Shown: positions 8,998-32,000 of the stretch, piece by piece | Numbering within the stretch: position 1 is the stretch's first letter | How the letters are laid out: every line of letters starts with the position of its first letter | Notes under the pieces: model-generated | Told to the model about the DNA's origin: nothing | The model's database searches: none | The model's input: the letters and a program-made list of their open reading frames with translations, nothing else | Translations under genes and position numbers: made by a program | Assembly (NCBI RefSeq): GCF_000283555.1 | Contig: NC_016012.1 | Location: forward strand, 960,001 to 992,000 | Length of the DNA stretch: 32,000 nucleotides | Reading direction: 5' to 3' | From: Candidatus Arthromitus sp. SFB-rat-Yit | Lineage (GTDB): Bacteria > Bacillota > Clostridia > Clostridiales > Clostridiaceae

Positions 8998-9053
8998 GAC
9001 CATAATTCTTTTAATGTATAATTAGGAATATAGTAAATTTAAGGAGGTTAATG

Positions 9054-9488
9054 ATGTTAGATTTTAAAGTTAAAAGTATAATAAAAGACTGCGTTCCAGT
9101 ATTAAGAGAACGTGGAGTTGAATTAACAGAAAATTTTTATGATTTAATGTTCACCAACAATCCAGAAGTTAGACCTCTTTTTGATGAAGATAGACAAAAA
9201 AGTGGTAAACAAGCTAAAGCCTTAGCTGCTTCGCTTCTTGCGGTTGCTCAAAATATCGATGACTTAGAAAAAATTCTTCCAACTGTTAAAAAAATTGGAG
9301 AATCTCATGTTAAAGCAAAAGTTTTACCTGAACACTACCCAATAGTTGGAAAAAATCTCTTATTAGCAATCAAAAAAACTTTAGGTGATGCTGCAACAGA
9401 TGATGTTATTAATGCATTTTCTGAAGTTTACACATATATTTCTAAAATATTTATAGACGTAGAAAAGGAACTTTATAATAATCTTTAA
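9054..9488 (+). CDS. Single-domain bacterial globin (Vgb / flavohemoglobin N-terminal-domain type); no reductase domain
   Basis: About 144 aa. VLRERGVELTENFYDLMFTNNPEVRPLF...QKSGKQAKALAASLLAVAQNID...IGESHVKAKVLPEHYPIVGKNLLLAIK follows the Hmp/Vgb globin pattern, with distal Q and proximal H contexts. AGGAGG lies at 9042-9047. The ORF stops after the globin fold. Confidence 0.8.
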   Translation: MLDFKVKSIIKDCVPVLRERGVELTENFYDLMFTNNPEVRPLFDEDRQKSGKQAKALAASLLAVAQNIDDLEKILPTVKKIGESHVKAKVLPEHYPIVGKNLLLAIKKTLGDAATDDVINAFSEVYTYISKIFIDVEKELYNNL

Positions 9489-11739: not shown

Positions 11740-13341
11740 ATGAAAGATATGGAAAACAACAATTTATTTCCAATTAGTTTGCTAATAGATCGAATAATTT
11801 CTAAATTTAATCCAACTAATTGCGAAAATTTATATATTATTTATTCGTTTATATTTGACGATAACGATCCTATATATTTAGAAGTTAAAGATGGTTTTTG
11901 TAAAATTTTAAATCATACTCCTTTACATATAAATACAACTATTAGAACAAGTCATAAAATTTGGCAAGAAATTTGTTTAAATAAAGCATCATTAAAAAAT
12001 GCACTAAAAGAAAACCTAATTAAATGTGATGGTGAAATTAAAAATTACATATTGCTATGCAACCTACTTGAAAAAGATTTACCTAATGACATAAAAAATT
12101 CCAATGCATTCTCTATCTCAAAAACTTCATCTAATGAAAACACTTCAAAAAATAAAGAGTTAACCCAAAATCAAAACACCATAACTAAAATCGAAACACC
12201 TTCAAACATAATAACCATAACAGAACCTAATCTTCCAGAAATTGAGGTAGATGAATCTACTATTTCAGATAACAAGACATCCATACTAATCAATACCGTA
12301 CCAAATGATAACATAAAAACAGAAGATAAGAATGCAAATAAAAAATCAATAAAACATCATAAAAAAAGGAAATTCAAGAAAAACATCTTTAGTAAAGATA
12401 AGAAACCTAAAAAGAATAAAACTCCCAAAATAAAATCAAACAACATAAAATATCTTTCAATAAGATCTCTATTAAATGTAATGGTAGCAAATTTTAACCA
12501 CGCTCTTGCAAACGACCTAAACATAACATACAAATTTATATTTGAAAATCCAAAACCAATTTATCTTGTAATTAAAAATAAAACTGCAAAATTACGCTAT
12601 CAATTAAATGACGAAATAAACACTACAATAATATCAAATTATAAAACTTGGTACAAAATAATTTTTAAAAATTTAAAAATCGAAACTGCACTATTGGACG
12701 AAAAAATTAAATGCATTGGGGAAACTAAAAATTTAGAGTTGTTAAACAAATTGTTTAAACATGTCGAAGAAAACAACGAACAAAAAATTACAACTTTAAA
12801 ACTTAATCCCATAATTTGGTTTGTTTTAGCTATAATACCCTGGTTATTTTACTGGACACTTTTACACATTTGTCAACCACTATTCACTTCAACTTTCGCT
12901 GTTTTATACACTACAATTTTTATAACAATCATAAAACCTAGACATTTTAAAAAAATCACAAAACTTGAAGCGTTAACATTAATTATTTTTCCATTTTACA
13001 ATCTATTTAATGTTTTAAATCCAATTGTATTTAACGATATTGTTTCATCATTTTTCCTCAACATAATATTAATTTTAACTCTTTTCATGAGTTCAGGATG
13101 CGAAAAATCAATTATGTCGGAATATTCCGAAATTTCTTATAATTCAGAAATTGCTAAAACAATTCTCTTCAAAAATATAAATAAAAATTTAACAATATTA
13201 TGGTCAATTTTATTTACAATTAGATTCATTTTATCATTAGTTTTAGACACACCTTTGCACACTATATCTTATATATTTATCGGATTTGGGATATTCATTT
13301 CATGGATATATTTGAAATTAAACCTAAATATCAAAGGCTGA
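11740..13341 (+). CDS. Hypothetical membrane protein: two SCP2-like (sterol-carrier-type) modules, a lysine-rich linker and a C-terminal polytopic region
   Basis: 533 aa with RBS AAGGAGTG. An internal duplication is visible (residues ~15-112 vs ~243-342: F.IF.N..PIYL..K, INTTI, K.W..I, AL.E.IKC.GE.KN). The KKSIKHHKKRKFKKN..KKPKKNKTPK linker is followed by hydrophobic segments from about residue 355 to the end. Confidence 0.6.
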   Translation: MKDMENNNLFPISLLIDRIISKFNPTNCENLYIIYSFIFDDNDPIYLEVKDGFCKILNHTPLHINTTIRTSHKIWQEICLNKASLKNALKENLIKCDGEIKNYILLCNLLEKDLPNDIKNSNAFSISKTSSNENTSKNKELTQNQNTITKIETPSNIITITEPNLPEIEVDESTISDNKTSILINTVPNDNIKTEDKNANKKSIKHHKKRKFKKNIFSKDKKPKKNKTPKIKSNNIKYLSIRSLLNVMVANFNHALANDLNITYKFIFENPKPIYLVIKNKTAKLRYQLNDEINTTIISNYKTWYKIIFKNLKIETALLDEKIKCIGETKNLELLNKLFKHVEENNEQKITTLKLNPIIWFVLAIIPWLFYWTLLHICQPLFTSTFAVLYTTIFITIIKPRHFKKITKLEALTLIIFPFYNLFNVLNPIVFNDIVSSFFLNIILILTLFMSSGCEKSIMSEYSEISYNSEIAKTILFKNINKNLTILWSILFTIRFILSLVLDTPLHTISYIFIGFGIFISWIYLKLNLNIKG

Positions 13342-13891: not shown

Positions 13892-14653
13892 TCAGTAATC
13901 TTTTAAAATGCCTTTTAACTTTGCTAATATCTTTTTTTCAATACGAGAAACTTGAACTTGACTAATCCCAAGTACAGAAGCTACCTGTATTTGTGTCTTA
14001 TCTTTAAAATATCTAAGCATTATAATTTGCCTACTTTTCTCATCAAGTTTACTTATCATTTCTTTCAATACAAGTCTGTTTAAAATAATAGAATCATCAG
14101 ATGCCTTTTCTTCAATTTTATCAATCAAAAGAATCGGCGATCCATCATCTTGATGCACAGTATCATATAAATACTGTGTACTAGAACAAGAATCTATAGC
14201 TAAAATTATATCTTCAACACTCAACTTAGTGTATTCAGCCAATTCATAAACTGTTGGTTCTCTATTTAGCTCTTTTGTAAGCTCATCACGCTTAAACATT
14301 ATTTTTCTCGATATCCCTTTTACATTTCTGCTAATTTTAACGATACCATCATCTCTTAAAAACCTTTTTATTTCACCCAAGATCATAGGAACAGCATACG
14401 TAGAGAATTTAACATTATACTCACTATTAAAATTTTTAATAGCTTTAATAAGTCCAAGTGCCCCGACTTGGTAAATATCATCGTAGTCGTATCCTCTACC
14501 CAAAAATTTCTTACTTAGTGATGCAACTAATGGTAAATTAACCTCCAAGAGCAAATCTTCAGCTTTTTTATCTCCATTTCTTACTCTCTTTAAAAGTTCA
14601 TCATTTTCATAATGACGTAAAGCATTGCTGAAGACTGAATTTTCATATGCCAT
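13892..14653 (-). CDS. sigF: Sporulation sigma factor F (forespore-specific)
   Basis: 253-aa sigma-70-family protein with regions 2-4 (DYDDIYQVGALGLIKAIKNFN, STYAVPMILGEIKRFLRDDG, TQIQVASVLGISQVQVSRIEKK). It lies directly downstream of spoIIAA and spoIIAB. RBS GGTGAG. Confidence 0.9.
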   Translation of the reverse strand: MAYENSVFSNALRHYENDELLKRVRNGDKKAEDLLLEVNLPLVASLSKKFLGRGYDYDDIYQVGALGLIKAIKNFNSEYNVKFSTYAVPMILGEIKRFLRDDGIVKISRNVKGISRKIMFKRDELTKELNREPTVYELAEYTKLSVEDIILAIDSCSSTQYLYDTVHQDDGSPILLIDKIEEKASDDSIILNRLVLKEMISKLDEKSRQIIMLRYFKDKTQIQVASVLGISQVQVSRIEKKILAKLKGILKDY

Positions 14654-14665
14654 TATACACTCACC

Positions 14666-15118
14666 TTACTTTTTTATATACTTTACCATTTTAATATGAG
14701 TTCCCTTATCTCTGCTACTATCAACATATAATTCGTCCATAAAACTTTCCATCACTGAAAATCCCATGCCCGAACGTTCAAGATCAGGTCTTGATGTATA
14801 TAGAGGCTCTCTTGCCTGATCAATATTATCAATTCCACATCCATAGTCTATAATACTTATTGTAACTTTATATTTGTCATTGTCATTATTGTCTTCTTCA
14901 TTATCTTCAATACCAACATTAATAACTACATTAGTATTTTTATCTTCATTATAACCATGTATTATAGCGTTAGTAACAGCCTCTGACACTGCAGTTTTAA
15001 CATCGCTAATCTCTTCAAGTGTTGGGTCAAGTTGAGCAATAAATGCAGCGACAGCAACCCTAGCAAAACTTTCATTGCTAGACCTACTGCTTAAAGTTAA
15101 ACTCATACTATTTTGCAT
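14666..15118 (-). CDS. spoIIAB: Anti-sigma F factor, serine protein kinase (GHKL ATPase)
   Basis: [33 protein letters not shown] and ERSGMGF are SpoIIAB/HATPase_c motifs. The ATG at 15118 has AGGGGGA 5 nt upstream; the longer ORF to 15136 has no RBS. Confidence 0.9.
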
Positions 15119-15128
15119 ACAAATCCCC

Positions 15129-15473
15129 CTAAGCATTATTCATAACCTCTGTTAAATCACTATGTATTTTTACAATTTTATTAATACCCGACAATTCAAT
15201 AACTTTTTTAATTGTTTGATTCAAATTAACTAAAAACACTTGTCCATTCTTAGCTGTTATCTTTTTATGTCTTCCAATTATTATTCCAATGCCTGAACTA
15301 TCCATAAACGAAACATTTTTAAAATCAAAAACTAAATTTTTAGAAGTGGAAGTATCTATGTAGTAATCTATTTTTATCCTTATATATTCAGCTGAATGAT
15401 GATCTAATTCTCCATTAAGATAAGCTACAATAGTATTATTTTGCTCTTCACAAAAAACTTCCAAAAAAAACAT
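15129..15473 (-). CDS. spoIIAA: Anti-sigma F factor antagonist (STAS domain)
   Basis: [14 protein letters not shown] and the phosphorylatable-Ser context [13 protein letters not shown] are present. The ATG at 15473 directly abuts AGAAAGG, so the TTG at 15464 (9 nt after that SD) may be the real start. Confidence 0.85.
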
Positions 15474-19201: not shown

Positions 19202-22200
19202 TTAATACGCCAATCCCATAGAAGCAACATATTGTTTGAATTCTGATTCATTCATCATCTCACTAGCTATTTTTATTCTCAAATCTGCTAATGACTCTAA
19301 TTGTACTCTATACTCATCATATTTTCCTATCCAATATTTTTGTCCTTCTTCTTCTGGATCTCTTCCTACAACTATTTGGTACATCATTTTTATAAAATCT
19401 TCTTTGTTTAGATATCTATTTATGAATTCATCTTGTTTCATTAAGCCATAAATAAATTGAGTTACTGTTAATTCTTTAGATTCTAATCTTTGAACCCAGA
19501 ATTTCCATCCTTCAACCTCTGGCTGGCGTCCAAGTGAAGCAAGATAAATTTTTGATACAAATTCTGCAACTTTTCCAGTAGGTGGCTCTATTGCTGGTTT
19601 TGTTGTGAAAGTATTGATTTTATATCTAGTCAATAAACCATTCTCAAGTTTGAAAGTTATTTCTAGACTATTGTATTCAGTCATTGGTTTCAAGTCACTT
19701 AATCTTAAAGTTAATGTGCTTACATCCCAAGTAAATTTAATACTTTCATTGTTTAATGCTACGCTAGATATTTTAGATTGTGGATTTGAAAACAGTTCAA
19801 ACACGATTTCTGCTGTTGTATCTGTAGTAGTTATTGTAGTTCCTTTTACATCTACAGATGAAGCTTGAGGTGTAGTTATCTTTGCGTACTTTGATAAAGT
19901 TTGTTCTTTATTATCTTTATCTCTCCAAATGAAATCAAGTTTGTATACTGTTTCAGTTTTTGGCTCTAGATTTGTAAACTTCAACAATCCACCTTCTAAA
20001 ACCAACTCTACATTAGGATTATTCGCTGGCTTTTGGAAATCAATTCTTACAAATCTATCATTCAAATCATCAACTAACACTGGAATTTCAGCTTTTCTAG
20101 CCTCTAATGTCTTAGCATCAAATAAAGTTACATTAAATGCATCTGTTCCTGTTAACTCTGGACCTGTTTCGTTATCAAGATTTACACCTGGAACTTGATG
20201 AATACCTGTAGTTGTAAAAACTACTCCTGTGACTGCAGAAGGTGCTGTAGCTATACTAATATTAGTTATTTTATTAATCGTATTTAATACTTGTCTTGTA
20301 ACAAGCTCTCTCTTATCAATATCAACGTAGCTGAGTTCAAGAATTAAGAATCCATAATCTCTCTTCTCTGATAAATTGTAAAGAGTTAAGATGAAATATA
20401 TTTTGTCTTTTCCTTCAATTCTCTCAACCTTAAACTTCTCATCACCTTTGAGTCCATTAACAGTTAAATCTTTAATAGTTACATCACTATTATCAACTTC
20501 TATAACATACCTTAGAGCTGTTTTATCATTTTTAACAGCAGGCATTACTAACTTATTTGGAAGTTCAACATTTAATTTTGGATAGAATACCTCAACAGTA
20601 TCACTTCCAGAAACAGTTGATGTAAACATTCCACTTGTAGTATTAACATATTTCTTCTCTGGATCAAGCTCTATATAAAGTTTAGGCTCTGTAAAATTTG
20701 AAGTCCTAATAGATAAAGTATGAGTAAGCACAGTTGTTACTGTTGTAGTACCACTTATACTAGATGTCATTATTTGAGATAAAAATATAGTCTTTGTTAC
20801 ATCCTTTTCTTCTGGTTTTGCTGTTACATGTAACTTTCTAAATGTGTATGGAGTTGACCTCTCTAGTCCTGTTACATGCAGGTATCCACCCCTCTCTGGT
20901 TTATCTGTATCAATTAAAGCAACAGATGCTGGATATTTATTTAATCTATCATCTTCAACTTCCATTTTTGTTATAGTCTTATCTTTATCAAATATCTTTA
21001 ACGTATTAAATCTTACACTGTTACCATTAGTTCTCAATGCTATATTTGAAGCTGTAGTTGATATCATTTGTTCATAATCAAAATAAGTCGTATCATCAAT
21101 TGAATTAAAATCAATATTCATCGCTGAAGGTGTACTATTAGTATGCGTATATATCATTTCTGCTGCTGTTAATGTAGAATTATCTACCTTATAAGTTTCA
21201 AATAATGGTAGCTGTTTACCAGTCTTGAAGTTTGTCATACTGAATCCTTCAAGATAATTAACAACACTCTTTGTGTTAGGATCAGAGTAATAGGTAACGT
21301 TCTTATTAAGTGCAACAAACTGATAATTTGTATTTGTCTTCATTTTTTCAAATGCTTGGTAATCCTCAGGGTTCTTTATATCAAATCTAACAGCCATTCC
21401 CTCTGCATTTAGATTCATATTGGACGTTGTCGTTGTTCTAACATTATTAGTTACAGCGTTATTAACCAATGAATCTTCCGCTATAATACTTCTCAAGTAA
21501 TCCATACTATCTGGAAATATTGATTCCCCATCATAGAGTACTGTAACTTGCTTAGGAGAAATATCATCAACATCTTTAAATGTAAACATTAAGTTTGGAA
21601 TTCCACCAGTATAACTCCCAGTATTGGATTCAAATATTGCTCTAAGAGCCCTTGCTAATTGTGCTCTGTGAGTTATCTCTGGTATACCTGCTGGATGAGA
21701 AGGAGCAGATGTTGATAAATTAGTTCTAACTCCATTGATATCATCAATCATTTCATTTGCAGCTTTAATCATAAAATCTCTTAAACTAGCTGTTACAGTT
21801 GTTGGTGTTGTTCCTCCGGTAATACTTGAATCCATAAAAACAATATTCTGAGAATCAAAAGAAGATACAAGAGATACTGTTGCTAGAACATCAAGCACCT
21901 TACCAGTTAATATGAAATCTGCCTTCGCTTTCCCTTGGAAAGTATACATTCCACTTTCAACTGTAGTTTCTGTAGTTGATATTATTAAATCTACTCCACC
22001 AATTGTACTTCTAAACTGTGAAATAGTACCAGATGGCTTAGCTGTAGGATCTATCCTATTATCATTTATCGCTCTTGGAGTTAACCCATAAGTTGCTATA
22101 CGACTCATATCGGCTACAACATCAAAAGCATCTTCTGGAATTTCTTGAACATCAAATGAATCTTGAACATTATTATCGATTATTACTTCCTCTGTTACTT

Positions 22201-22642
22201 CATCTACTTTTTCATTTCCTTGATTATTTTCTCCTGATCCGGACATGGCAACTCCATCCTCTTGATTATTTTTTTGATCTTGTAAATCGTGTACGCTGTC
22301 ATCACTGCTGCTGTCAATTTGTATTTGACTGTCTTGACTGATTGTTTCGTCGACCTCAACAACTTTTTCAAAATCTTCTTGCTTTTCAAATTCCACTTCT
22401 TCAAAATCTCCTTCCTCCACTAATATTGTTTTCTCGTCATTAGTAGATTCTTGAGAGTTTTGAAATGATTGTTCATTTTCACTCGTGACCGTTTCTATAT
22501 GTTCTGATATTTGCACCTCTTCTACGCCTTCAGCTGTATTTTCACCAATTCTACTTTTATTAATTCCTCCATTAGCTTGCTCCATAATTTTGTTATAAAT
22601 TGTATTAAAATTTAAAGAATTATTATCGTTTTGGTCTTTCAT
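19202..22642 (-). CDS. Giant paralog P1: acidic Q/E/D-rich N-terminal region, four FN3/Ig-like motif modules and a C-terminal double DUF4214-like repeat; no signal peptide
   Basis: The ORF is open to 22681 (1159 aa). The ATG at 22642 has AAAGGAA 8 nt upstream. The C-terminus FVSKIYLASLGRQPEVEGWKFWVQRL...FIKMMYQIVVGRDPEEEGQKYW fits the DUF4214 signature (FV..LY...LGR.PD..G..YW) twice. No hydrophobic stretch occurs in the first ~200 aa. Confidence 0.85.
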   Translation of the reverse strand: MKDQNDNNSLNFNTIYNKIMEQANGGINKSRIGENTAEGVEEVQISEHIETVTSENEQSFQNSQESTNDEKTILVEEGDFEEVEFEKQEDFEKVVEVDETISQDSQIQIDSSSDDSVHDLQDQKNNQEDGVAMSGSGENNQGNEKVDEVTEEVIIDNNVQDSFDVQEIPEDAFDVVADMSRIATYGLTPRAINDNRIDPTAKPSGTISQFRSTIGGVDLIISTTETTVESGMYTFQGKAKADFILTGKVLDVLATVSLVSSFDSQNIVFMDSSITGGTTPTTVTASLRDFMIKAANEMIDDINGVRTNLSTSAPSHPAGIPEITHRAQLARALRAIFESNTGSYTGGIPNLMFTFKDVDDISPKQVTVLYDGESIFPDSMDYLRSIIAEDSLVNNAVTNNVRTTTTSNMNLNAEGMAVRFDIKNPEDYQAFEKMKTNTNYQFVALNKNVTYYSDPNTKSVVNYLEGFSMTNFKTGKQLPLFETYKVDNSTLTAAEMIYTHTNSTPSAMNIDFNSIDDTTYFDYEQMISTTASNIALRTNGNSVRFNTLKIFDKDKTITKMEVEDDRLNKYPASVALIDTDKPERGGYLHVTGLERSTPYTFRKLHVTAKPEEKDVTKTIFLSQIMTSSISGTTTVTTVLTHTLSIRTSNFTEPKLYIELDPEKKYVNTTSGMFTSTVSGSDTVEVFYPKLNVELPNKLVMPAVKNDKTALRYVIEVDNSDVTIKDLTVNGLKGDEKFKVERIEGKDKIYFILTLYNLSEKRDYGFLILELSYVDIDKRELVTRQVLNTINKITNISIATAPSAVTGVVFTTTGIHQVPGVNLDNETGPELTGTDAFNVTLFDAKTLEARKAEIPVLVDDLNDRFVRIDFQKPANNPNVELVLEGGLLKFTNLEPKTETVYKLDFIWRDKDNKEQTLSKYAKITTPQASSVDVKGTTITTTDTTAEIVFELFSNPQSKISSVALNNESIKFTWDVSTLTLRLSDLKPMTEYNSLEITFKLENGLLTRYKINTFTTKPAIEPPTGKVAEFVSKIYLASLGRQPEVEGWKFWVQRLESKELTVTQFIYGLMKQDEFINRYLNKEDFIKMMYQIVVGRDPEEEGQKYWIGKYDEYRVQLESLADLRIKIASEMMNESEFKQYVASMGLAY

Positions 22643-22738
22643 GAATTTTGATTCCTTTAAAATTAATTGATTCAATATCATTATTAGTTGTAAGAATAAT
22701 GTTTTATGACAAATTTAATGAACTTTATTTCACAAAAC

Positions 22739-22774
22739 AAAAAAAAATTAAAGAGTCAACAATAATTGACCCTT
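22739..22774 (-). terminator. Intrinsic terminator after the small embedded ORF
   Basis: The minus-strand RNA reads AAGGGUCAA-UUAUUG-UUGACUCUU (one G-U pair), followed by UAAUUUUUUUUU. Confidence 0.5.
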
Positions 22775-22813
22775 TTTATAAAAATTATACTATAGATGTT
22801 ACTCTATATTAAA

Positions 22814-23080
22814 TTACTCCATTACACTATCTATTAAGTTAGTTGTAACAACTTTAATATCATATCTTGTGTGTTCAATTACTTTTGATACAGATTTTGC
22901 TACTTCACTTAAAGCATCATTTGTTGCTCCTTGCTTTATACCTGAAATAGTTTTTGTAAATCTTCTTATCGTTCCATCATCCTCATCAAAATAAAAAGTT
23001 ATTACCAAATTACTTGTTAATGTTGTAGATGTTATAACTTGTGCATCCATTAAATCAATTTGTTCCATATTTTGTTCCAT
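22814..23080 (-). CDS. Small DUF1659/DUF2922-like protein embedded in the paralog array
   Basis: The ORF is open to a TTG at 23095 (93 aa). GGAG at 23093-23090 is best spaced for the ATG at 23080. The pattern LVITFYFDEDDGTIRRFTKTISGIKQGATNDALSEVAKSVSKVI..........I resembles my recollection of the ~70-aa Firmicute DUF1659/DUF2922 families. This is a weak, memory-based call. Confidence 0.5.
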   Translation of the reverse strand: MEQNMEQIDLMDAQVITSTTLTSNLVITFYFDEDDGTIRRFTKTISGIKQGATNDALSEVAKSVSKVIEHTRYDIKVVTTNLIDSVME

Positions 23081-23116
23081 ATTCATATTCTCCAAAAATA
23101 TATTACTTAAAAATAA

Positions 23117-23175
23117 TAGATGAACTCAATGCAAGGGGTTCTTCTGTGAAATACGGGTGAACTTGAGTTCATCTA
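23117..23175 (-). terminator. Long hairpin (13-bp perfect stem, 33-nt loop) between P2 and the small ORF; terminator or regulatory leader
   Basis: TAGATGAACTCAA (23117-23129) / TTGAGTTCATCTA (23163-23175). On the minus strand it is followed by UUAUUUUUAAG, then the RBS of the small ORF. It begins 51 nt after the P2 stop. Confidence 0.45.
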
Positions 23176-23226
23176 CTCTAAATAATATTATCTACAACAA
23201 AATTTATTACAAAAAATTTTAAAACT

Positions 23227-26200
23227 TTAATATATAAGTCCTATCCTACTCACTAACTCTTTAAATTCCGGCTGATCCATCATTTCTCTCGCTATCTTAA
23301 TTCTTAGCTGTGCGATAGTCGAAACTTCATTCCTATATTCAACATATTTTCCTTCCCAATATCTTTGCCCTTCCTCTTCTGCCTCTCTGTCTACTATTAA
23401 AGTGTACATTGTTGAAACAAATTTCGATTTAGTAAGTTCCCTGTCAACAAATTCTGGTTGAGTCATTAAATTCTCAGCTATAAATTCCGTAGCTGAAAGC
23501 TCTTTACTCTGAAGTTTTTCTATCCAGAAATTCCATCCTCCACCTTCAGGCTCACGTCCAAGAGCAATATTATATACTCTTCTTACAAATTCAGCTACCT
23601 CTCCTTTTGGTTTATTCTCATCGACAACCGTTTTAAAAGTTCCCAGTGGATATTCAACACTCTTTCCATTTTCTAAATTTATCCTTATAATTACGTTCGT
23701 GTATGTGTATTCTGGTTTAAGTCCTTCTAATTTTATTGTGTTTGTATCGTTATCCCATGTTGATTTAAAAACATTATTTAAATCATCATAAACTGATACA
23801 GATTTTACTTTTGATTTTGGCTCTGAATATGTGTTTAATTTAATATTTACCTTAGTTGGATCAACTACATTTATATCTGCAGATTTAATATCATAATCTG
23901 GTGTTTCTGTTGTTGTTAATCTAACATATCTTTTTATTTGATTCGCTTCTCTAGCAGTCGTATTATTACAATTAAATATTACAGTAAACATTCCACTTGT
24001 TTCTGGTTTCAAATCACTAAATTGTAATACAAAGTTGTCATAACTTACTTTTGCATCTGGATTATCGTCAGGATTTTTAACCTCGATTGAATCTATCCTA
24101 TTTTCCAAATCATCAATTAAAATTGGAACTCTTGCAACTCTTGCGTACGATGAACTAAAATTATCATTTAATGAAATTTGTACAGCTTCTTCAACTGGTA
24201 ATGGTTCACCCTCAGTTGTGTTATCATATTTAATGTTTTCACCTTTTGATGGATTTAATGTTGATAAACTTTTTCTAGCAATCTGAACATTTCCATTGCT
24301 ATCTAAATAATTTAATTCCAAAATTACAAATCCATAATCTTTATTCTTCGTCAAATTATTAAGCGTCACTATATAATAATTTTCCTTCTGCGTTTTATCT
24401 ATCATCTTTTCTACTCGGTATGTTTCAGAGTCCGTAAGACTTGTAACATTAAGATCTAAAACATTCCCTTGTTTATTATCAACTTTAAATACATATCTTA
24501 ATGCAGAATCAGAATTCTTAACAATGTTAGTATCAAGACCATTTGGAAGCTTAATCATCGAAGAATTCGTGCCAGCTAATTGAATTTTTGGTTCTGGCTC
24601 TTTTAATGTAACTACAGGTTCATAATTTTGTTTAACAGTTCCATTATCATAATAACCTAAATTCAATTCTTGAGTTGTCGTTCTTCCATTCATATCTGAT
24701 GTTATAAATAATTTTGTAAACACATATGGCGTACTACTCTTAAGCCCATTTACCTCAATTGAAAAAGTATCCGTATTCTCCAAAGTCAAACTACAATTAT
24801 ATCTATAACCTTGATCATCCTGAATCTCAACTCTTGATATACTTCTATCAGTATCTTTGAAAGTTATATTTCTAAATCTTATAGAATTTGTTGTAATAAA
24901 AATATCTTGCTCACTTGTCCCATATGATTTCATATCCAAATAAACGCCATCTTTAAATTGAGTGACATACATATCATTTTTAGCAGTACCTTGTAAATTT
25001 TGTGAAGTCGTTTCATATAAATTAGATTTTCCTGCATTTTTAGATACAAATAACGCTGGAGCTTTTCCAGTTTTACAGTTACTCAATCCCGTTAAAGTCA
25101 ACTTAACATCATCACCAACAGTTATATCTCGATTCACTTCCTGTTCCTCTAAAGCATTCAAAGTATAAACCGTATTAGTACGAAGCTTATCTCCAATTGT
25201 GTTTTCATTCTCATTTCTAATTACAATTCTTAAAGCAACATCACTAGCTCTTATTTCACCTTCTGAACTCATGCTTGATAAATCAATAATATTTTTAATA
25301 TACTTTTCTTTATCTGGTGCAAAGTCCGAACTCATCTTAACTTTTTTCACACCACCATTACCATCAAATGATAATTGTGCATTCATATCATCTAAAATTT
25401 TAGAAAGAGCATCACGAAGTTTTTTCCTCTCTACAGTTTCATTTGAATTTTTCTTCGCTTCCTCATATGCTTTAATAATTAAATCTCCAAGAGTGCCTTC
25501 ATCATAATTTCTTATTACATAAGTTGAAATTTTAACTTCTTGTTCTGTATCTTCTTGCTCTGCATCATCTTTTTCCGTAGTGTCTTCTTCTGTATCAGTA
25601 TTATCATCCTCTACAGAATCATCATCACCTGTAGTTCCATCTTCTCCAGGTTTTGAAGGTTCTGAAGGTTCTTCAGGTGATGGAGTAGTTTCTGATGGTG
25701 GTTGTGGTTGAGAGGTTTCTCCATTTTCTTCATTTTCATCTCCTGCTTCACCTTGACCAGGGTTTGATCCAGCATTGTCGCTTCCACTTCCATCTTGTAC
25801 ACCATCTTCAGTTTCGCCCCCTTCTACCTCATCTCCATCTTCTTCTGAACCTTGGTCACCATTTGGCTTATCGCTATCACCTTCACCTTCTGAAGGTTTA
25901 TCCACTTCTTCACCTTCTGAATTTTCTGGAGGTGTTGTTTCAATCACTTTTTTATTTAATATTTCACCTGATAATTTTAAACTCAACTCTATTGTTCCAT
26001 AAGGTGTGTATGATTCTCCAGAACCAAGCAATTCAGAACTACCTAAGCTCTTAATAATTTGAACTTGGCTTTGATTTGTTTTATCTGGTTGTGATGGTTG
26101 TTCAGGACTATTCTCAACATTAGGTGGTTCTGTACCATTTGATGGTGGAGTTACTGGTGTAGTCGACGGATCTTGAACACTATCCCCCTCACTACTACTT

Positions 26201-26445
26201 TCATCTTGATCTACAGAACTGTCGTCTGTTGTTGGGGCATCAACTACAACATCTCCATCTCTCAAACTTGAATTTAAATATGCATAAATCAATTTATTAT
26301 CTTCACCCGTTTCAACAGCCGCACGATCCAAAGCCATTGTAACTTCCATATTTTTTTTCATATTATAAGGCATAAGATGTCCTGAAAAAATATTTGATGT
26401 AATAAACATCACAACTAACATAAAGCTAACTTTCCTCTTATTCAT
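23227..26445 (-). CDS. Giant paralog P2: signal peptide, P/S/T/D/E-rich N-terminal region with a large acidic insertion, four FN3/Ig-like motif modules and a C-terminal double DUF4214-like repeat
   Basis: 1072 aa. RBS AGGGAGGG lies 7 nt upstream. The N-terminus is MNKRKVSFMLVVMFITSNIF. The C-terminus is FVRRVYNIALGREPEGGGWNFWIEKL...FVSTMYTLIVDREAEEEGQRYW. Confidence 0.85.
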   Translation of the reverse strand: MNKRKVSFMLVVMFITSNIFSGHLMPYNMKKNMEVTMALDRAAVETGEDNKLIYAYLNSSLRDGDVVVDAPTTDDSSVDQDESSSEGDSVQDPSTTPVTPPSNGTEPPNVENSPEQPSQPDKTNQSQVQIIKSLGSSELLGSGESYTPYGTIELSLKLSGEILNKKVIETTPPENSEGEEVDKPSEGEGDSDKPNGDQGSEEDGDEVEGGETEDGVQDGSGSDNAGSNPGQGEAGDENEENGETSQPQPPSETTPSPEEPSEPSKPGEDGTTGDDDSVEDDNTDTEEDTTEKDDAEQEDTEQEVKISTYVIRNYDEGTLGDLIIKAYEEAKKNSNETVERKKLRDALSKILDDMNAQLSFDGNGGVKKVKMSSDFAPDKEKYIKNIIDLSSMSSEGEIRASDVALRIVIRNENENTIGDKLRTNTVYTLNALEEQEVNRDITVGDDVKLTLTGLSNCKTGKAPALFVSKNAGKSNLYETTSQNLQGTAKNDMYVTQFKDGVYLDMKSYGTSEQDIFITTNSIRFRNITFKDTDRSISRVEIQDDQGYRYNCSLTLENTDTFSIEVNGLKSSTPYVFTKLFITSDMNGRTTTQELNLGYYDNGTVKQNYEPVVTLKEPEPKIQLAGTNSSMIKLPNGLDTNIVKNSDSALRYVFKVDNKQGNVLDLNVTSLTDSETYRVEKMIDKTQKENYYIVTLNNLTKNKDYGFVILELNYLDSNGNVQIARKSLSTLNPSKGENIKYDNTTEGEPLPVEEAVQISLNDNFSSSYARVARVPILIDDLENRIDSIEVKNPDDNPDAKVSYDNFVLQFSDLKPETSGMFTVIFNCNNTTAREANQIKRYVRLTTTETPDYDIKSADINVVDPTKVNIKLNTYSEPKSKVKSVSVYDDLNNVFKSTWDNDTNTIKLEGLKPEYTYTNVIIRINLENGKSVEYPLGTFKTVVDENKPKGEVAEFVRRVYNIALGREPEGGGWNFWIEKLQSKELSATEFIAENLMTQPEFVDRELTKSKFVSTMYTLIVDREAEEEGQRYWEGKYVEYRNEVSTIAQLRIKIAREMMDQPEFKELVSRIGLIY
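25537..25938 (-). repeat. Low-complexity acidic D/E/G/P/S/T-rich coding segment specific to P2
   Basis: P2 residues ~170-303 (TPPENSEGEEVDKPSEGEGDSDKPNGDQGSEEDGDEVEGGETEDG...EEPSEPSKPGEDG...EKDDAEQEDTEQE). All other frames are also open here, which produces spurious ORFs. Confidence 0.8.
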
Positions 26446-26464
26446 TTCAAAACCCTCCCTAGTA

Positions 26465-26502
26465 TAAAAAAAGAGATGGCAGATAAGCCATCTCTCTTTT
26501 TT
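26465..26502 (-). terminator. Intrinsic terminator between P3 and P2
   Basis: AGAGATGGC (26472-26480) / GCCATCTCT (26487-26495), flanked by an A-run and a T-run, so there is a U-tract on both strands. It lies 8 nt after the P3 stop. Confidence 0.7.
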
Positions 26503-26509
26503 GAAATGA

Positions 26510-29500
26510 TTAATATATCAATTGAAGTTTAGTCACTAACTCTTTAAACTCTGGTTGATCCATCATTTCTCTCGCAATCTTAATCCTTAACTCAGCTATA
26601 GACTTAACTTGATCTTTGTATTCATCATATTTTCTTTCCCAATAGTTTTGGCCATCACCGTCTGGCTCTCTATTAACTATCAATGAATACATTGTCGTAA
26701 CAAACTTCGATTTACTTAACTCTCTATCAACAAATTCTGGCTGAGTCATTAAATTCTCTGCAATAAATTCTGTAGCTGAAAGTTCTTTTGATGTCAATTT
26801 ATTAATCCAGAAATTCCATCCTTCAACTTCTGGCTCACGTCCAAGTGCTATTGTATAAACTCTTGAAACAAAATTTGCAATATCTCCTGTTGGCTTAACA
26901 ATTTCTTCACTTGTTGTAAATGGACTCAACTCATACTTACTTGTTAATTTATTTTCTAACGTAAATGTTGCAACAAGTTCACTATATTCTTTATTTGGTT
27001 CAAGATTATAAAGTGTTATGGTATTGGTATCTTTGTCCCAAGAACTTCTTATAACATTAGAATTTTTATCTCTAACTTCTACTGATTTAATACCTGATTT
27101 TAAATTTTCATAATAATCAAGTTTTATACTTACTTCATTTCCTTTTACACTTGCAATATCAGACTTAACATCTACTTCTGGAACAGATGGCGTCATAACT
27201 TTCAAATATCTTGTTAACACTTTATCATTGCCACTTGCATCTTTATAATTAAATTCTAGAGTTATCGTTGTAGTAGAATTAGGTTTTAATCCTGTTATAT
27301 CTAAATATGAATCTTTAAATTCAACCTTTGCATCTGCATTATTTGCTACAGGTTTAAAAGTCATTCCTGATATCCTTCCATGAATATCATCAACAAAAAT
27401 TGGAACTCTTGCTTTTCTTGCATAATCACTCTTAAACTCATCGTTTATTACCACATTGATATCATTCAAGCCTGTTAAAGCTTCCTTCTCTGTCCTGTTA
27501 TCCATTTTTGTATTATTAGGATCAGACTTATAAATATTTCCTATTGATTGTCTTGTTGATTTTTCTGTACCTGTTTCATCTTTATAGCTAAGTTCAAAAA
27601 TAACATGACCATAATCAGTGTTAGGTGTAAGATTTGTTAAAGTTACTATATAATAATTAGTTTTTGTTTTGCTATCCTCAATCTTTTTAACTTCAGATTT
27701 TTCAGTTGAAGTTAAAGAAAGAATTTGCAAATCTCCAATATTTCCTTCACTGTTATCAACCTTAACTATATATCTAAGTGCTGTAGAATCATTTTTAACT
27801 GGTTTTACTTTTAACCCATTAGGTAAAGTAACATCGTCATTTACATTACCAGAACCTAATTCTATTTTTGGTTCAGAAACCTTAGTTGTCCTAACTGTCA
27901 ATTGGTTAGCCGTAATATTATTACTTGAATCTACGTTAGCTAAATCGATAGTAACTGTTTCATCTTGCACTCCAATATTTGAAGTTACAAGAAGTTTCGT
28001 GAATGTGTATGACGTATCTCTCTCAAGGCTATTTACTTGAATATAATATCCCTTATCTTTATTTGATGGGTCAACAGGCACCAAACTACATGCATACTTT
28101 GTTCCTCTAGCATCTTGCATTTCAACTTTTGTAATTGTGCTATCTGGATCATCGAAAACTATATTTTTATATTTAATAAATGTTCCACCAGTTACTATTC
28201 CATCTTTAATATTTTGGTAATCTGTCATATCCAAATAAATTCCTGGTTTAATCATTGTTGTTATATATTTTTGTTTTTCAGTTCCTTTATTATTGCTTGC
28301 TGTAGTTTCATATATAAGAGTATTACTACTATCATTCTTAACAGTTAAAGTTGAAGGTGATTTACCTGTTCTACACTCTGGAACTGTAAAACCTGATATA
28401 AATTGATTGTCATTTGCATCAACTTTCAAACTATTTCCATCACTATTAGTTCCACCTATACCGACGAATGTATAATCGGTATTAGTTTTAAGTGTTGTAT
28501 TATCATTTGAAGCCGAACTACTTCTTATCATCATTCTTAATACAATATCTTTAGAATTAATAGTTCTTGCACTTCTCAAAGTTCTTCCTGTTGTCCTCAT
28601 ACCATTTAAATCTATAATACCTCTTACATAATCCTTGTTGCTTGTTGCATCTGGGAATATATCAGAAATAGAAACGTTTACAAGAGTTCCTTTTGGATCT
28701 CTAAACATCAATGTTTTTCCTGTATTATTATCAGAAATTACTTTTTTAAGTGCCTTTTGTAATGCTTCCCTAGCTGTTGTTACTTGTCCTGACCACCCAC
28801 TATTAGAATCTTTAATTGCTTCATCAAAAGCATTTGAAACTAATCCACTTAAATTCTCTTTATTTAATACTTCTCCTGATAATTTAAAGCTTAAATAAAT
28901 AACACCTTGAATATTCCCAGCATCACCTGTACCTACCACTTCACTTGATCCAACACTTCTTACTGGAATAATTTCTCCTATCGTTGTTTTTTCTGCAGTA
29001 GCCTGTGGAACAATACCGCTATCTTGTGTATTTTGTGGGGCAACTACATTAGCTTTATTTTGAGATTCACTAGCTGATGGTGTTACTTCTGCACTATTGA
29101 TTGCATTATTTAAACTTCCAGTATTTCCTTGAGATGAACTATTTATTTTACTATCAGTTGTATCATTTATCATTGAATCAACATCATCTTGAACAATAGC
29201 TCCACCAAATCCTGTCATAGTATTTCCATTATTAAACGAATTAACATTATCGTTTGATATTATTTCATCAGATGGAGTCATTTGATAATCTGTCATTGTT
29301 TGATCAAATAAGTTTACATCATTTGATTCTGGATTCATTTTTAAGTTATCTGTTACTTCATTATCTTGAGTTCCATAAATATCGTATGGAGCTACATCAT
29401 ATGGAGCTACATTATTATCAAAATTATTTTTTTCATCTATTATTGATGTTTCATCTATAATTTCATCACCATAATTAACATTTGGATAAGTTTCAGAACC

Positions 29501-29722
29501 ATAATCTTGTGAAGTGTTATTAGTATAAGGATTATTTACTCCATATCCATCTCCTGTATATTCCGTAACAGTTCTATCTGCTGCTCTTCTAAATCCACCC
29601 TCTCCTTGTGCTACATTTGCACCATTATCCGCACTTTTATTGTTATTTGATGTGCAACCTGTTAACATACTTGAGGCAACAACTAATCCAGTTAATAGAA
29701 GTGTAATCTTTTTTCTATTCAT
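26510..29722 (-). CDS. Giant paralog P3: lipoprotein signal, N/S/T/D-rich N-terminal region, four FN3/Ig-like motif modules and a C-terminal double DUF4214-like repeat
   Basis: 1070 aa. MNRKKITLLLTGLVVASSMLTGC has the lipobox L-T-G-C. The C-terminus is FVSRVYTIALGREPEVEGWNFWINKL...FVTTMYSLIVNREPDGDGQNYW. Confidence 0.85.
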   Translation of the reverse strand: MNRKKITLLLTGLVVASSMLTGCTSNNNKSADNGANVAQGEGGFRRAADRTVTEYTGDGYGVNNPYTNNTSQDYGSETYPNVNYGDEIIDETSIIDEKNNFDNNVAPYDVAPYDIYGTQDNEVTDNLKMNPESNDVNLFDQTMTDYQMTPSDEIISNDNVNSFNNGNTMTGFGGAIVQDDVDSMINDTTDSKINSSSQGNTGSLNNAINSAEVTPSASESQNKANVVAPQNTQDSGIVPQATAEKTTIGEIIPVRSVGSSEVVGTGDAGNIQGVIYLSFKLSGEVLNKENLSGLVSNAFDEAIKDSNSGWSGQVTTAREALQKALKKVISDNNTGKTLMFRDPKGTLVNVSISDIFPDATSNKDYVRGIIDLNGMRTTGRTLRSARTINSKDIVLRMMIRSSSASNDNTTLKTNTDYTFVGIGGTNSDGNSLKVDANDNQFISGFTVPECRTGKSPSTLTVKNDSSNTLIYETTASNNKGTEKQKYITTMIKPGIYLDMTDYQNIKDGIVTGGTFIKYKNIVFDDPDSTITKVEMQDARGTKYACSLVPVDPSNKDKGYYIQVNSLERDTSYTFTKLLVTSNIGVQDETVTIDLANVDSSNNITANQLTVRTTKVSEPKIELGSGNVNDDVTLPNGLKVKPVKNDSTALRYIVKVDNSEGNIGDLQILSLTSTEKSEVKKIEDSKTKTNYYIVTLTNLTPNTDYGHVIFELSYKDETGTEKSTRQSIGNIYKSDPNNTKMDNRTEKEALTGLNDINVVINDEFKSDYARKARVPIFVDDIHGRISGMTFKPVANNADAKVEFKDSYLDITGLKPNSTTTITLEFNYKDASGNDKVLTRYLKVMTPSVPEVDVKSDIASVKGNEVSIKLDYYENLKSGIKSVEVRDKNSNVIRSSWDKDTNTITLYNLEPNKEYSELVATFTLENKLTSKYELSPFTTSEEIVKPTGDIANFVSRVYTIALGREPEVEGWNFWINKLTSKELSATEFIAENLMTQPEFVDRELSKSKFVTTMYSLIVNREPDGDGQNYWERKYDEYKDQVKSIAELRIKIAREMMDQPEFKELVTKLQLIY
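26736..26893 (-). repeat. 158-nt block about 92% identical to 30001-30158 (first DUF4214 repeat of P3 vs P4)
   Basis: My hand alignment gives 13 mismatches in 158 nt, with perfect runs of 25 and 32 nt. The encoded NFVSRVYTIALGREPEVEGWNFWINKLTSKELSATEFIAENLMTQPEF is identical in P3 and P4. Confidence 0.8.
29385..29414 (-). repeat. In-frame 15-bp tandem duplication in the P3 N-terminal region
   Basis: tatggagctacatca (29385-29399) and tatggagctacatta (29400-29414) match at 14 of 15 positions. They encode the repeated VAPYD-VAPYD. Confidence 0.8.
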
Positions 29723-29774
29723 AACCTTCTTAAAACCTCCTAATTCATAAATAACATTTGTTAATTTATATCAA

Positions 29775-32000
29775 CTAATAATTTAATCCCAATGAAGTTA
29801 CTAAATCTTTAAATTCTTTTTCATTCATCATTTCTCTTGCAATTTTAATTCTCAAACTTGCAACTGTACTTGTTTGTTCTCTATATTCGTTATATTTTCT
29901 TTCCCAATAGCTTTGTCCATCTTCATCTGGAGTTCTGTTAACTATTAATGAATACATAGTTGTAACAAACTGTTGTTTATTTAATTCTCTTTCAATAAAC
30001 TCTGGTTGAGTCATTAGGTTTTCTGCAATAAACTCTGTAGCTGAAAGTTCTTTTGATGTTAATTTATTAATCCAGAAATTCCATCCTTCAACCTCTGGCT
30101 CACGCCCAAGAGCTATTGTATAAACTCTAGATACAAAGTTTGCAACATCTCCTGTTGGTTTTGGAGTAACTGTTCCAGTTTTAAATGTAGTTAATGGATA
30201 TTCTACAATTTCTGTATTTTCAAGAGTAAATTTAGCTATTAATCCTTTAAATTCTGTATTAGCATCCAATCCTTGTACAAGAATTGAATTTGTAGCAGAA
30301 TCCCAATTAGAAGTATATTTTTTACCTGATGAATCTTCAACTGATACAGATTTAATAGGTGATTTTGGAGTTGAATAATAATCAAGTTTAATTGTCGCCT
30401 CATTATCTTTAATAGTAGCCGTATCTGTTTTAATATCTAAATTTCCTATAACTGGAGTTTTTATAGTTACATATTTCCTAATGCTTTGCTCTGTATTTGA
30501 ATCATTATTATAAACAAATTCAAGGGTAATAGTTGTATTTGTATTTGGAGTTAAACCTGATACGTTTACATAAGAACCATCATACTCAACTTTAACATCA
30601 GGATTTGATTCTAATGGAATATAATTCATTCTAACGAATCTTCCATTCATATCATCAATGAATAAAGGAACTCTTGTACTTCTTGCATAATCAGACTTAT
30701 GGTTTGTTTCAATATCTACTGTAAAAGTACTTTGTCCATTAACAGGGTTATTTTCTGTTACGTTATCAACTGTTGCATCATCTCTCTTGCTATTGATTTG
30801 AGCTAATGTTGTTCTAAGAACCCCATTTTTACCATCATAATCTTTATAATCTAATTCTAAGTTAACAAAGTTGTAATCTGTTGCTTTAGAAAGATTACTC
30901 AAAGTTACTACATAATAATTAATCTTAGCTTTCTTATCTACTATTTTTTGAATCTTAGACTCTTCTCCTGGTCTTAAACTTGTTACTCTTAATTCACCGA
31001 TATTATCTTCAGAATTATCAACCTTCAATACATATCTTAATGAAGTTGCATCGTTCTTAACAGCTTGTACGTTTAATCCTCCTGGAAGCGTAACCATTTG
31101 TTTAGGTCCACTTGCTCCTAATTCTAATTTTGGCTCACTAAATGTTGTTGTTTTAATCGGCTTAGTATTTTTAGTTGCAGCTCCGGTTGTTTGCTTCTCT
31201 TTTAATTGAAGAACACTAACTTGTTCTTTACCATCAGTGTTTGAAGTTATATCAATTTCAGTGAAAATATAGTTACTATCAGTTCTTAATCCTGAAATCT
31301 GTAAATACTTACCTTTTGTTTTATCGTCAGGATCAACTTGAATTAATGATCCTGTATAAGTTTTATCCTCTGAATCCTTCATTTCAATCTTTACTATACT
31401 ATCATCAGGATCAACAAATTTAATTCCTTTAAATCTTATAGTTGTACCTCTAGCCTCAACATTATCAGCACTAGTAAAATCAAAATCTCCTACATTAAGA
31501 TAATATTTTTTTGCTAACTGGCTTGTATAAAATGTTCCACTAACCTGTGTAGTAGTCGTATTACCACCAGTAGTAGTTTCTTCATATATTGCATTATTCA
31601 TTACATTTATAGTAGAAGGGGCTTTTGCTGTTGTCGCTTGAGGAATATTTAATCCCGTTAAAATTTTATCATCTTTTATTGGAAGCTCATTATTTTTAAT
31701 ATTGCTTCCTGTTAAACCAACAAATGTATAATTTGTATTTGTAGCTAATTCATCATTACCTTGTCCATCCGCACCTTGTAATCTCATAATAAGAGTAATT
31801 GGAATATCTTGTGAAGTAGCTCTTACAGATCTTTGTCCACTTCCTTTATACATACCATCAATATCAATTATTCTTCTTACGTACTGTGAATTTTGATTCT
31901 TTGGAGGACAGATATTAGCAGCAGTGTATGGTATATTAACTATTTGACCTTTGCTATCTTGGAATGTAAAATTATTACCAGCTGTCACATTAAATATTTC
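29775..32000 (-). CDS. Giant paralog P4 (N-terminus outside the window): four FN3/Ig-like motif modules and a C-terminal double DUF4214-like repeat
   Basis: The ORF-track start at 31988 is a GTG, and the frame stays open to the window edge (EIFN precedes it). The visible 741 aa align with internal regions of P2 and P3, so the gene continues upstream. Stop TAG at 29775-29777. Confidence 0.85.
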   Translation of the reverse strand, partial: EIFNVTAGNNFTFQDSKGQIVNIPYTAANICPPKNQNSQYVRRIIDIDGMYKGSGQRSVRATSQDIPITLIMRLQGADGQGNDELATNTNYTFVGLTGSNIKNNELPIKDDKILTGLNIPQATTAKAPSTINVMNNAIYEETTTGGNTTTTQVSGTFYTSQLAKKYYLNVGDFDFTSADNVEARGTTIRFKGIKFVDPDDSIVKIEMKDSEDKTYTGSLIQVDPDDKTKGKYLQISGLRTDSNYIFTEIDITSNTDGKEQVSVLQLKEKQTTGAATKNTKPIKTTTFSEPKLELGASGPKQMVTLPGGLNVQAVKNDATSLRYVLKVDNSEDNIGELRVTSLRPGEESKIQKIVDKKAKINYYVVTLSNLSKATDYNFVNLELDYKDYDGKNGVLRTTLAQINSKRDDATVDNVTENNPVNGQSTFTVDIETNHKSDYARSTRVPLFIDDMNGRFVRMNYIPLESNPDVKVEYDGSYVNVSGLTPNTNTTITLEFVYNNDSNTEQSIRKYVTIKTPVIGNLDIKTDTATIKDNEATIKLDYYSTPKSPIKSVSVEDSSGKKYTSNWDSATNSILVQGLDANTEFKGLIAKFTLENTEIVEYPLTTFKTGTVTPKPTGDVANFVSRVYTIALGREPEVEGWNFWINKLTSKELSATEFIAENLMTQPEFIERELNKQQFVTTMYSLIVNRTPDEDGQSYWERKYNEYREQTSTVASLRIKIAREMMNEKEFKDLVTSLGLNY
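30001..30158 (-). repeat. 158-nt block about 92% identical to 26736-26893 (P4 copy)
   Basis: See the partner feature at 26736-26893. Confidence 0.8.

Follow-up and report, generated by a model that had tools for sequence, protein, structure and literature searches.

Segmented filamentous bacteria (SFB) are a model commensal for the induction of Th17, IgA and CD8 responses, and their surface proteins are antigens as well as host-contact machinery. Here we describe an array of four large genes, P1 to P4, which all lie on the minus strand of a 32,000-nt stretch of the Candidatus Arthromitus sp. SFB-rat-Yit chromosome (in the following, the window). In databases these genes, RATSFB_0872 and its three neighbours, are annotated as 'DUF4214 domain-containing protein'. 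The closest described systems are proteins of SFB themselves. Pamp et al. 2012 (PMC3371716) defined an SFB-specific Cluster.1 of 19 secreted proteins with a common DUF4214 C-terminus that resembles phycobilisome (PBS) linkers, and a Cluster.3 with a C-terminus similar to that of Cluster.1 and with FN3 in one member; the proteins of both clusters were proposed to be components of surface structures. According to Jonsson et al. 2020 (PMC7474095), no fewer than 14 proteins predicted at the surface have a C-terminal motif in common, among them the immunodominant Th17 antigen P3340, which immuno-electron microscopy located at the wall; the authors postulated that anchoring takes place via this motif. 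In human SFB, 12 lipoproteins were predicted in the same work and sortase was not found. In 2025, a cryo-electron tomography study (PMC12780176) called DUF4214 a likely surface-anchoring domain and reported two outer layers, an S-layer in the case of offspring and a hair-like one in the case of filaments, the composition of both being stated as unknown. In 2026, a preprint described the DUF4214 protein SFBNYU_003240 as a CD8 antigen and restated the anchoring idea (PMC13174671). Anchoring via the DUF4214 tail is therefore an already published hypothesis (2020, restated in 2025 and 2026).

The array shares with these published proteins the SFB origin, the PBS-linker-like DUF4214 C-terminus and a weak FN3 signal, and the proposal of a role in surface structure and anchoring is the same; secretion is predicted for P2 and P3 from their signal peptides and for P4 from that of its mouse orthologue, but not for P1. 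The four genes almost certainly belong to the SFB-specific Cluster.1/Cluster.3, and most likely fall in Cluster.3. In contrast to the array, the published descriptions do not mention a lipobox and a DUF4214 tail in one protein, a signal-less subclass or a domain-level model. A preliminary description of the window had presented the array as an uncharacterised surface-protein family. That the family is lineage-specific and probably located at the surface held up, but 'uncharacterised' is correct only as far as experiments go, since both the family and its PBS-linker-like tail had been described in 2012 (PMC3371716), and the reading given then is essentially the published hypothesis with one false premise, as discussed below. 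Altogether, the array is a real feature of an already described and annotated family and the new details are modest: a lipobox in most members of the subfamily, a conserved signal-less subclass, strong purifying selection on the tail, an RTVTEY motif and a domain model. These details bear on how SFB hold wall proteins without sortase, SLH or CWB2, and on the make-up of the S-layer and the hair-like layer.

We propose that the array belongs to an SFB-restricted surface-protein family which combines a lipid tether, a variable stalk, an immunoglobulin (Ig)-like rod and a DUF4214 docking domain, a model that we regard as probable and hold with moderate confidence. Sequence architecture, lipobox pattern, predicted folds, conservation gradient and lineage restriction were computed here; from them we infer lipidation, a spacer that spans the wall, surface exposure and a ligand of DUF4214. 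As previously described, P1 to P4 are four large paralogs on the minus strand (33-48% mutual identity by BLASTP, E 1e-105 to 0). Their collinear homology covers about 740-840 aa, or ~70% of each protein, instead of the ~430 aa that had been claimed, and the genes are not strictly consecutive, as P1 and P2 are separated by a small DUF1659 gene. All four open reading frames (ORFs) are intact and exceed 1000 codons, that of P4 lying partly outside the window. The products are large, acidic proteins (isoelectric point 4.5-5.1) with few or no cysteines.

The conserved C-terminal tail was analysed at the sequence and structure levels. PF13946 (DUF4214) matched all four proteins with 50-58 bits (E 1e-13 to 1e-15; gathering score 23.2 bits) in two stretches each, so that the double repeat proposed from the sequence was found in every member. 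When modelled alone with AlphaFold2, the tail gave eight helices (predicted local distance difference test, pLDDT, 90.6), and the top 26 Foldseek matches in the PDB were all phycobilisome linker domains, with 2KY4 first. The whole 130-aa tail superposes on this domain (PF00427; PDB 2KY4, 3OSJ, 3NPH) with a template-modelling (TM) score of about 0.55 and a Foldseek probability of 1.0, but with only 12-18% sequence identity; the model thus predicts that the two DUF4214 repeats jointly form one PBS-linker-like domain. At the sequence level, P1 showed a weak PF00427 match (E 0.003, below the Pfam threshold), and searches of PDB sequences with P3 and with a tail profile gave nothing significant. 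Because a Clostridium-like gut bacterium has no phycobiliproteins and the array proteins would be extracellular, the partner of the tail must differ from that of the phycobilisome linker.

Many Trp and Tyr residues of the tail are invariant. A hydrophobic residue followed by Tyr had been given as the ending of all four proteins; this does not apply to P4 (GLNY), and the pattern that is invariant across 22 relatives is a C-terminal L-x-Y. At the DNA level, the most similar part of P2-P4 is the last 300 nt (75-84%). The synonymous distance (dS) within the tail is 0.8-1.35, the ratio of nonsynonymous to synonymous changes (dN/dS) about 0.18, and the longest identical runs measure 18-32 nt. Recent gene conversion as the source of the tail similarity is ruled out by the dS values and by the shortness of the identical runs; the dS and dN/dS values indicate that the similarity reflects constraint. 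Judging from these values and from the identities given below, the tail is the most constrained region and under strong purifying selection.

In the case of the ectodomain, an AlphaFold2 model of P3 residues 290-1070 (ma431f46b1fca), built on 22 sequences, reached a mean pLDDT of 84.2 and a predicted TM score (pTM) of 0.54. It consists of an alpha/beta head, a run of beta domains and the eight-helix tail. Thus, the structure check proposed earlier gave a string of Ig/FN3-like beta-sandwiches followed by a helical domain of PBS-linker fold. Foldseek matches in the PDB were tandem Ig, FN3 and cadherin ectodomains (NCAM2 with E 1e-11, titin/MyBP-C, CD45, cadherins), and also the S-layer protein SbsB and the adhesin SraP. 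At the level of the model, this similarity is of a generic beads-on-a-string type that assigns no family. The FN3 family PF00041 was not reached, since only P3 matched, with 18 bits and E 0.0034 (gathering score 25 bits); a precomputed PF00041 match exists for the relative P0014. It is the structure comparison, and not the sequence, that supports the Ig/FN3-like fold. Four strand signatures, A to D, that had been read in the sequence fall by position in four successive predicted beta-sandwiches; B and C match all four proteins, whereas A and D match P1-P3 and not P4 with the regular expressions used. Likewise, the landmark motif LP.GL....VKND..ALRY..VDN is present in all four proteins, but at 1311-1359 nt from the stop codon instead of 1260-1320 nt.

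At the other end of the proteins, the N-terminus of P3, MNRKKITLLLTGLVVASSMLTGC, fits the Gram-positive lipoprotein pattern G+LPP. Besides P3, the pattern fits about 30 relatives, most full-length ones included, and in mouse SFB the orthologues of P2, P3 and P4; the signal peptide is near-identical across this lipoprotein class. The mouse orthologue of P4, SFBM_1027 (1084 aa), carries the lipobox F-T-G-C; another mouse orthologue identified is SFBM_1026. As the OppA-like SBP_bac_5 gene next to the array has a lipobox as well, the lipoprotein pathway seems to be in use in this genome. P2 and P3 have a signal peptide, as does the mouse orthologue of P4, the N-terminus of the rat protein lying beyond the window, and P1 has none. 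Rat P2 and P1 do not match G+LPP. In rat P2 the lipobox is degenerate, with His in place of the Cys of the mouse orthologue; His at this position recurs in an independent sequence, P0026. One paralogue thus seems to have lost lipidation in a lineage-specific manner. In P1, neither a signal peptide nor a hydrophobic stretch was found at the N-terminus, which is an acidic region of ~190 aa. Orthologues of P1 with 50-53% identity (P0031, P0036, P0037), from at least three other SFB lineages, are also signal-less with very acidic N-termini, and the relatives of the P1 subclass (P0031, P0036, P0037, P0039) contain 36-63 Asp and Glu within their first 200 aa. Since the lack of a signal is shared by these lineages, the family is, as far as its sequences tell, divided into two conserved classes, a lipoprotein class and a signal-less class.

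Regarding other anchors, Pfam gave no match to SLH, CWB2, choline-binding or LysM domains at E up to 0.1 in any of P1-P4, and none to RTX/HemolysinCabind, the organism being monoderm and the array proteins having Sec-type signals. An NCBIfam search of P1-P4 returned nothing. LPXTG is absent from all four, with a maximum hydropathy of at most 0.51 in the last 60 aa. The statement of the preliminary description that classical Gram-positive anchoring modules are missing altogether is nevertheless wrong, as it had overlooked the lipobox that is present in P3, in the mouse orthologues of P2 and P4 and in about 30 relatives. It had also named the tail as the best anchoring candidate. While the tail is the most constrained part, the premise of a missing anchor is false for the lipoprotein class: because these members carry a lipobox at the N-terminus, their attachment to the membrane or the cell does not require DUF4214, which is more aptly understood as an additional docking module at the distal end. 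In this respect the array resembles Gram-positive surface lipoproteins with long stalks, which also have a lipobox, a low-complexity spacer and folded extracellular domains. It differs from them in three ways: the spacer is unusually long (about 185-370 aa), a further conserved domain with a proposed docking role follows at the C-terminus, and a solute-binding or enzymatic domain is absent.

The spacer consists to 60-90% of D/E/N/S/G/T/P/Q. By the marker used, the first folded segment begins between aa 208 and 391 among the relatives, and it is by the same marker that the spacer length given above was obtained. Close to its start, ~20 residues past the lipobox Cys, the motif [KR][KR]A[ST][DE]RTVTEY occurs in 43/46 sequences of the lipoprotein class, a count that takes in near-identical members of the same clusters (relatives P0002-P0035). 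It could be a processing or docking site. The N-termini had been called essentially unrelated. They are not entirely so: the lipoprotein class has the near-identical signal peptide and the RRAxDRTVTEY motif in common, and a short pre-domain segment is common to P2 (93-166) and P3 (215-289) with 37% identity. As a further observation, P2 contains an insert of ~140 aa (about aa 169-305; 25530-25940, minus strand) which is extremely acidic and Pro/Glu/Asp/Gly-rich, with up to 92% D/E/N/S/G/T/P/Q. Through this insert, a conserved stretch of short length (aa 126-168) is set apart from the remainder of the first folded domain; between rat and mouse, the insert is only 40% conserved.

Comparison of the rat proteins with their mouse orthologues revealed a gradient along the chain. 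Spacers are 40-63% identical with many indels (63% with 43 gap positions in the case of P3), the scaffold is 78-85% identical and the tail 89-94%. Among the paralogues the order is the same: about 21% for the spacers of P3 and P2, about 40% for the scaffolds of P2-P4, and 73-78% for their tails, which are 52% identical to that of P1. The four array genes are conserved in order in mouse SFB with 65-84% identity, and their surroundings are those of the rat: Polysacc_deac_1, P4, P3, P2, DUF1659, P1, SBP_bac_5, M28. An exhaustive search of 1.84 billion representatives with a profile of the scaffold without the tail found 31 proteins, 20 of them at E <= 1e-30. All named family members are from Ca. 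Arthromitus, and a genome scan matched only Ca. Arthromitus, Ca. Dwaynia gallinarum and one Clostridiales metagenome-assembled genome (MAG). Tandem copies with near-identical signal peptides were seen in other SFB-like MAGs. In the databases searched, the family is limited to SFB and close relatives. Two peptides reported from gut fluid by mass spectrometry, NFETGTLGDLIK and EMMDQPEFK (PMC6034559), match exactly, the former to the mouse P2 orthologue and the latter to P2 and P3, which suggests that genes of the array family are expressed. The PRIDE entry PXD060041 of the 2025 paper contains HDX-MS data only.

Mechanistically, Sec would export the members of the P2/P3/P4 class and a lipid would be attached to the Cys of the lipobox, so that the N-terminus would be tethered at the outer face of the membrane. 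The variable, low-complexity spacer would act as a flexible stalk across the thick wall, and the ectodomain of ~690 aa (the alpha/beta head and five beta domains, four of them Ig/FN3-like) would form a rod at or beyond the wall surface. Finally, the tail of ~130 aa would dock to a conserved partner shared by these proteins, most likely a glycopolymer of the wall, otherwise a protein of the outer layer. Rat P2, which lost the Cys, may be released or held through an uncleaved signal peptide. P1-class proteins, with the same ectodomain and tail and no export signal, would take a different route to the surface or function within the mother cell. For attachment, P1 and rat P2 would depend on the DUF4214 tail alone.

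That a wall glycopolymer is the likely ligand of the tail is argued from the many invariant Trp and Tyr residues and from the analogy with Psh of P. putida (RTX and DUF4214), which was reported to bind the O-antigen of lipopolysaccharide (LPS) (bioRxiv 10.64898/2026.09.02.748959). Psh and S-layer proteins of the RsaA type, which are anchored to LPS O-antigen, are secreted to the surface, as is proposed for the array proteins, and the report of the helical DUF4214 domain of Psh at a cell-surface glycan is a precedent for glycan docking by DUF4214. These systems are nevertheless Gram-negative, with type 1 secretion and RTX repeats, whereas the array has the reversed domain order, Sec/lipoprotein signals and Ig-like rods.

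Several points weigh against the model of tether, stalk, rod and dock. The PBS-linker fold is a protein-protein module within phycobiliprotein rings and not a glycan binder. Foldseek comparison of the tail with the LPS-binding N-domain of RsaA was not significant (E about 1, TM 0.28-0.43). For a protein to be held at both ends, by a lipid at one and by a wall-binding tail at the other, is awkward in terms of geometry, and at a pTM of 0.54 the model does not fix whether the domains are arranged as a rod or compactly. Furthermore, a single mechanism does not cover the four genes, because the Cys is missing from rat P2 and P1 is devoid of a signal. Lipidation, surface exposure and the DUF4214 ligand are in SFB all predicted from sequence or structure and not from experiment. 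The presence of the tail on p3340 or on peptidoglycan hydrolases was not confirmed from sequence, either. A homologue search with the tail for DUF4214 domain partners in SFB, such as peptidoglycan hydrolases, gave only six short fragments, and a scan of metagenome contigs with the tail alignment gave no confirmed locus. The 399-aa N-terminal part of P3340 (AID45212) showed no similarity to P1-P4 or to the window, and a search with these 399 aa for full-length P3340 found no match; the statement of a shared tail consequently rests on PMC7474095. As for the CD8 antigen, the epitope SGLIYVTL of SFBNYU_003240 is absent from the array locus in rat and mouse, so this antigen is a different DUF4214 protein.

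The evidence on the tail could also be read in such a way that DUF4214 is the primary, non-covalent wall anchor, binding peptidoglycan or a secondary wall polymer as SLH and CWB2 do, with the N-terminal signal serving for export only. We consider this reading, which is that of the preliminary description and of the published work, doubtful, although it deserves more attention than the other alternatives. SFB have no sortase, SLH or other usual wall-binding modules (PMC7474095, PMC12780176), and the Pfam search found none in P1-P4, which also have neither LPXTG nor a C-terminal hydrophobic segment. The tail is the most conserved region, its motif is common to the wall-located p3340, and the DUF4214 protein Psh is reported to bind O-antigen. 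For P1 and rat P2 the tail is the sole anchor candidate, since neither has a lipid anchor. However, the lipobox conserved in most members argues that a lipid tether matters; binding by the tail is argued by analogy, in the only characterised context the PBS-linker fold binds proteins, and the shared domain goes unnamed in the 2025 paper. A more specific idea, to which we give only a small chance, is that P2-P4 are subunits of the hair-like layer and/or the offspring S-layer, with the spacer as stalk, the Ig-like rod as 'hair' and DUF4214 as a knob binding a lattice or a wall polymer, and that signal-less P1 is synthesised in the cytoplasm of the mother cell and, like spore-coat proteins, deposited from outside on intracellular offspring or spores. 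Supply by the mother cell, if true, would explain why P1 needs no export signal. A rod built from five or six beta domains together with a helical knob would, as we estimate, measure about 25-30 nm, compared to 34 +/- 6 nm for the hair-like structures, and the large, acidic and cysteine-poor make-up, as in S-layer proteins, counts toward this idea. S-layer and wall proteins with SLH or CWB2 (SbsB, C. difficile SlpA/Cwp) are likewise large, acidic, cysteine-poor and beta-rich multi-domain proteins, and they form multigene families in which one conserved attachment module is joined to varied functional regions. Unlike them, the array has no SLH or CWB2 and has an N-terminal lipobox.

Host-facing adhesins or determinants of host specificity, in which the ileal epithelium would be contacted by the rod together with the variable N-terminal region and the role of DUF4214 would be purely structural, are in our view improbable. 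It is true that the folds are similar to the ectodomains of eukaryotic cell-adhesion proteins and to bacterial adhesins such as SraP, and that SFB proteins predicted to be extracellular diverge more rapidly than the average of the proteome (PMC7474095). Yet Ig-like folds in tandem are a generic feature, it is the spacer next to the membrane that varies and not the distal end, and SFB attach by the tip only (PMC12780176). Moreover, the ectodomain identity between rat and mouse SFB (78-85%) is near the proteome average of 83.4%, and therefore gives no sign of accelerated host-specific divergence. Least credible, and in our opinion very improbable, is an evolutionary leftover of one functional gene with decaying duplicates. 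It would account for the Cys to His change of rat P2 and for the missing signal peptide of P1. Pseudogene decay is nonetheless contradicted by the four intact ORFs, by the order and identity kept in mouse SFB, by the tail with its low dN/dS, by the retention of the signal-less P1 class at 50-53% identity in at least three further lineages, and by the reported peptides of the P2 orthologue. The coordinates of the features are compiled in the table.

Features of the array and its immediate surroundings in the window (aa, amino acids of the respective protein).
Feature	Coordinates	Strand	Description	Basis
Hairpin 3' of P1	19177..19196	minus	terminator-like, followed by a T-run	
P1	19202..22642	minus	RATSFB_0872, BAK81434.1, 1146 aa from MKDQNDNN	exact look-up
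P1 tail	19205..19600	minus	double DUF4214, 132 aa	Pfam, alignment
Hairpin 3' of the DUF1659 gene, 5' of P1	22750..22775	minus	terminator-like	
DUF1659 gene	22814-23095	minus	small gene between P2 and P1, likely ATG at 23086	Pfam PF07872, E 1.7e-10
P2	23227..26445	minus	BAK81435.1 / WP_014094895.1, 1072 aa; signal peptide with degenerate lipobox, spacer including very acidic insert, conserved ectodomain, DUF4214 tail	exact look-up, Pfam
P2 tail	23230..23625	minus	double DUF4214	Pfam, alignment, DNA repeat family D1
P2 degenerate lipobox	26377..26388	minus	F-S-G-H; CAT (His) versus TGC (Cys) in mouse, F-S-G-C	
Hairpin between P3 and P2	26472..26495	minus	palindromic, terminator-like, with T-run	
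P3	26510..29722	minus	BAK81436.1 / WP_014094896.1, 1070 aa, full-length member of the lipoprotein class	100% match
P3 tail	26513..26911	minus	helical domain, 2 x DUF4214, eight predicted helices, PBS-linker-like, ends L-x-Y	
P3 ectodomain	26912..28987	minus	aa 246-937, conserved; predicted alpha/beta head, beta domain, four Ig/FN3-like beta-sandwiches	
P3 spacer	28988..29653	minus	aa 24-245, low-complexity, N/S/G/D/T-rich, variable in length and sequence	
P3 motif RRAADRTVTEY	29558..29590	minus	aa 45-55, fixed distance after the lipobox Cys	
P3 lipoprotein signal peptide	29654..29722	minus	aa 1-23, predicted, lipobox L-T-G-C	G+LPP regular expression, conserved in homologues
P4	29775..32000	minus	C-terminal 741 aa, gene continues past the window edge	ORF and mouse orthologue
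P4 tail	29778..30173	minus	double DUF4214	Pfam, alignment, DNA repeat

Concerning the start of P1, the RefSeq version (WP_242821385.1) has 1159 aa and begins at 22681, the outer boundary given in the preliminary description. This extension of 13 codons is out of frame relative to the extension in mouse, so MKDQNDNN is likely the true start. The terminator-like hairpins after P3, after the DUF1659 gene and after P1 suggest that the array is probably not a single operon; a scan for sigma-70 promoters was uninformative, with counts not above the shuffled control. The DUF1659 gene is kept at the same place in mouse SFB (locus L001, 16836-17093). In S. aureus, the DUF1659 protein is reportedly SroA, which regulates the stability of sigS mRNA. 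Co-variation of DUF1659 with endospore formation has been described (PMC2955703).

The remaining window is ordinary chromosome of a low-GC Clostridia member (~30% GC), with sugar genes of the phosphotransferase system, CutC, a DeoR regulator, a globin, an M28 peptidase and the OppA-like SBP_bac_5 lipoprotein. About 4 kb downstream of the array, an operon of spoIIAA (STAS), spoIIAB (HATPase_c_2) and sigF (13892-15473, minus strand) is consistent with a sporulating lifestyle. The AT-richest part (23-26% GC) contains an ORF of 533 aa (11740-13341, plus strand) whose only annotation is a central domain similar to SCP2 / Alkyl_sulf_C. Finally, a globin-family ORF of 145 aa (9051-9488, plus strand) is encoded in this anaerobic gut symbiont.

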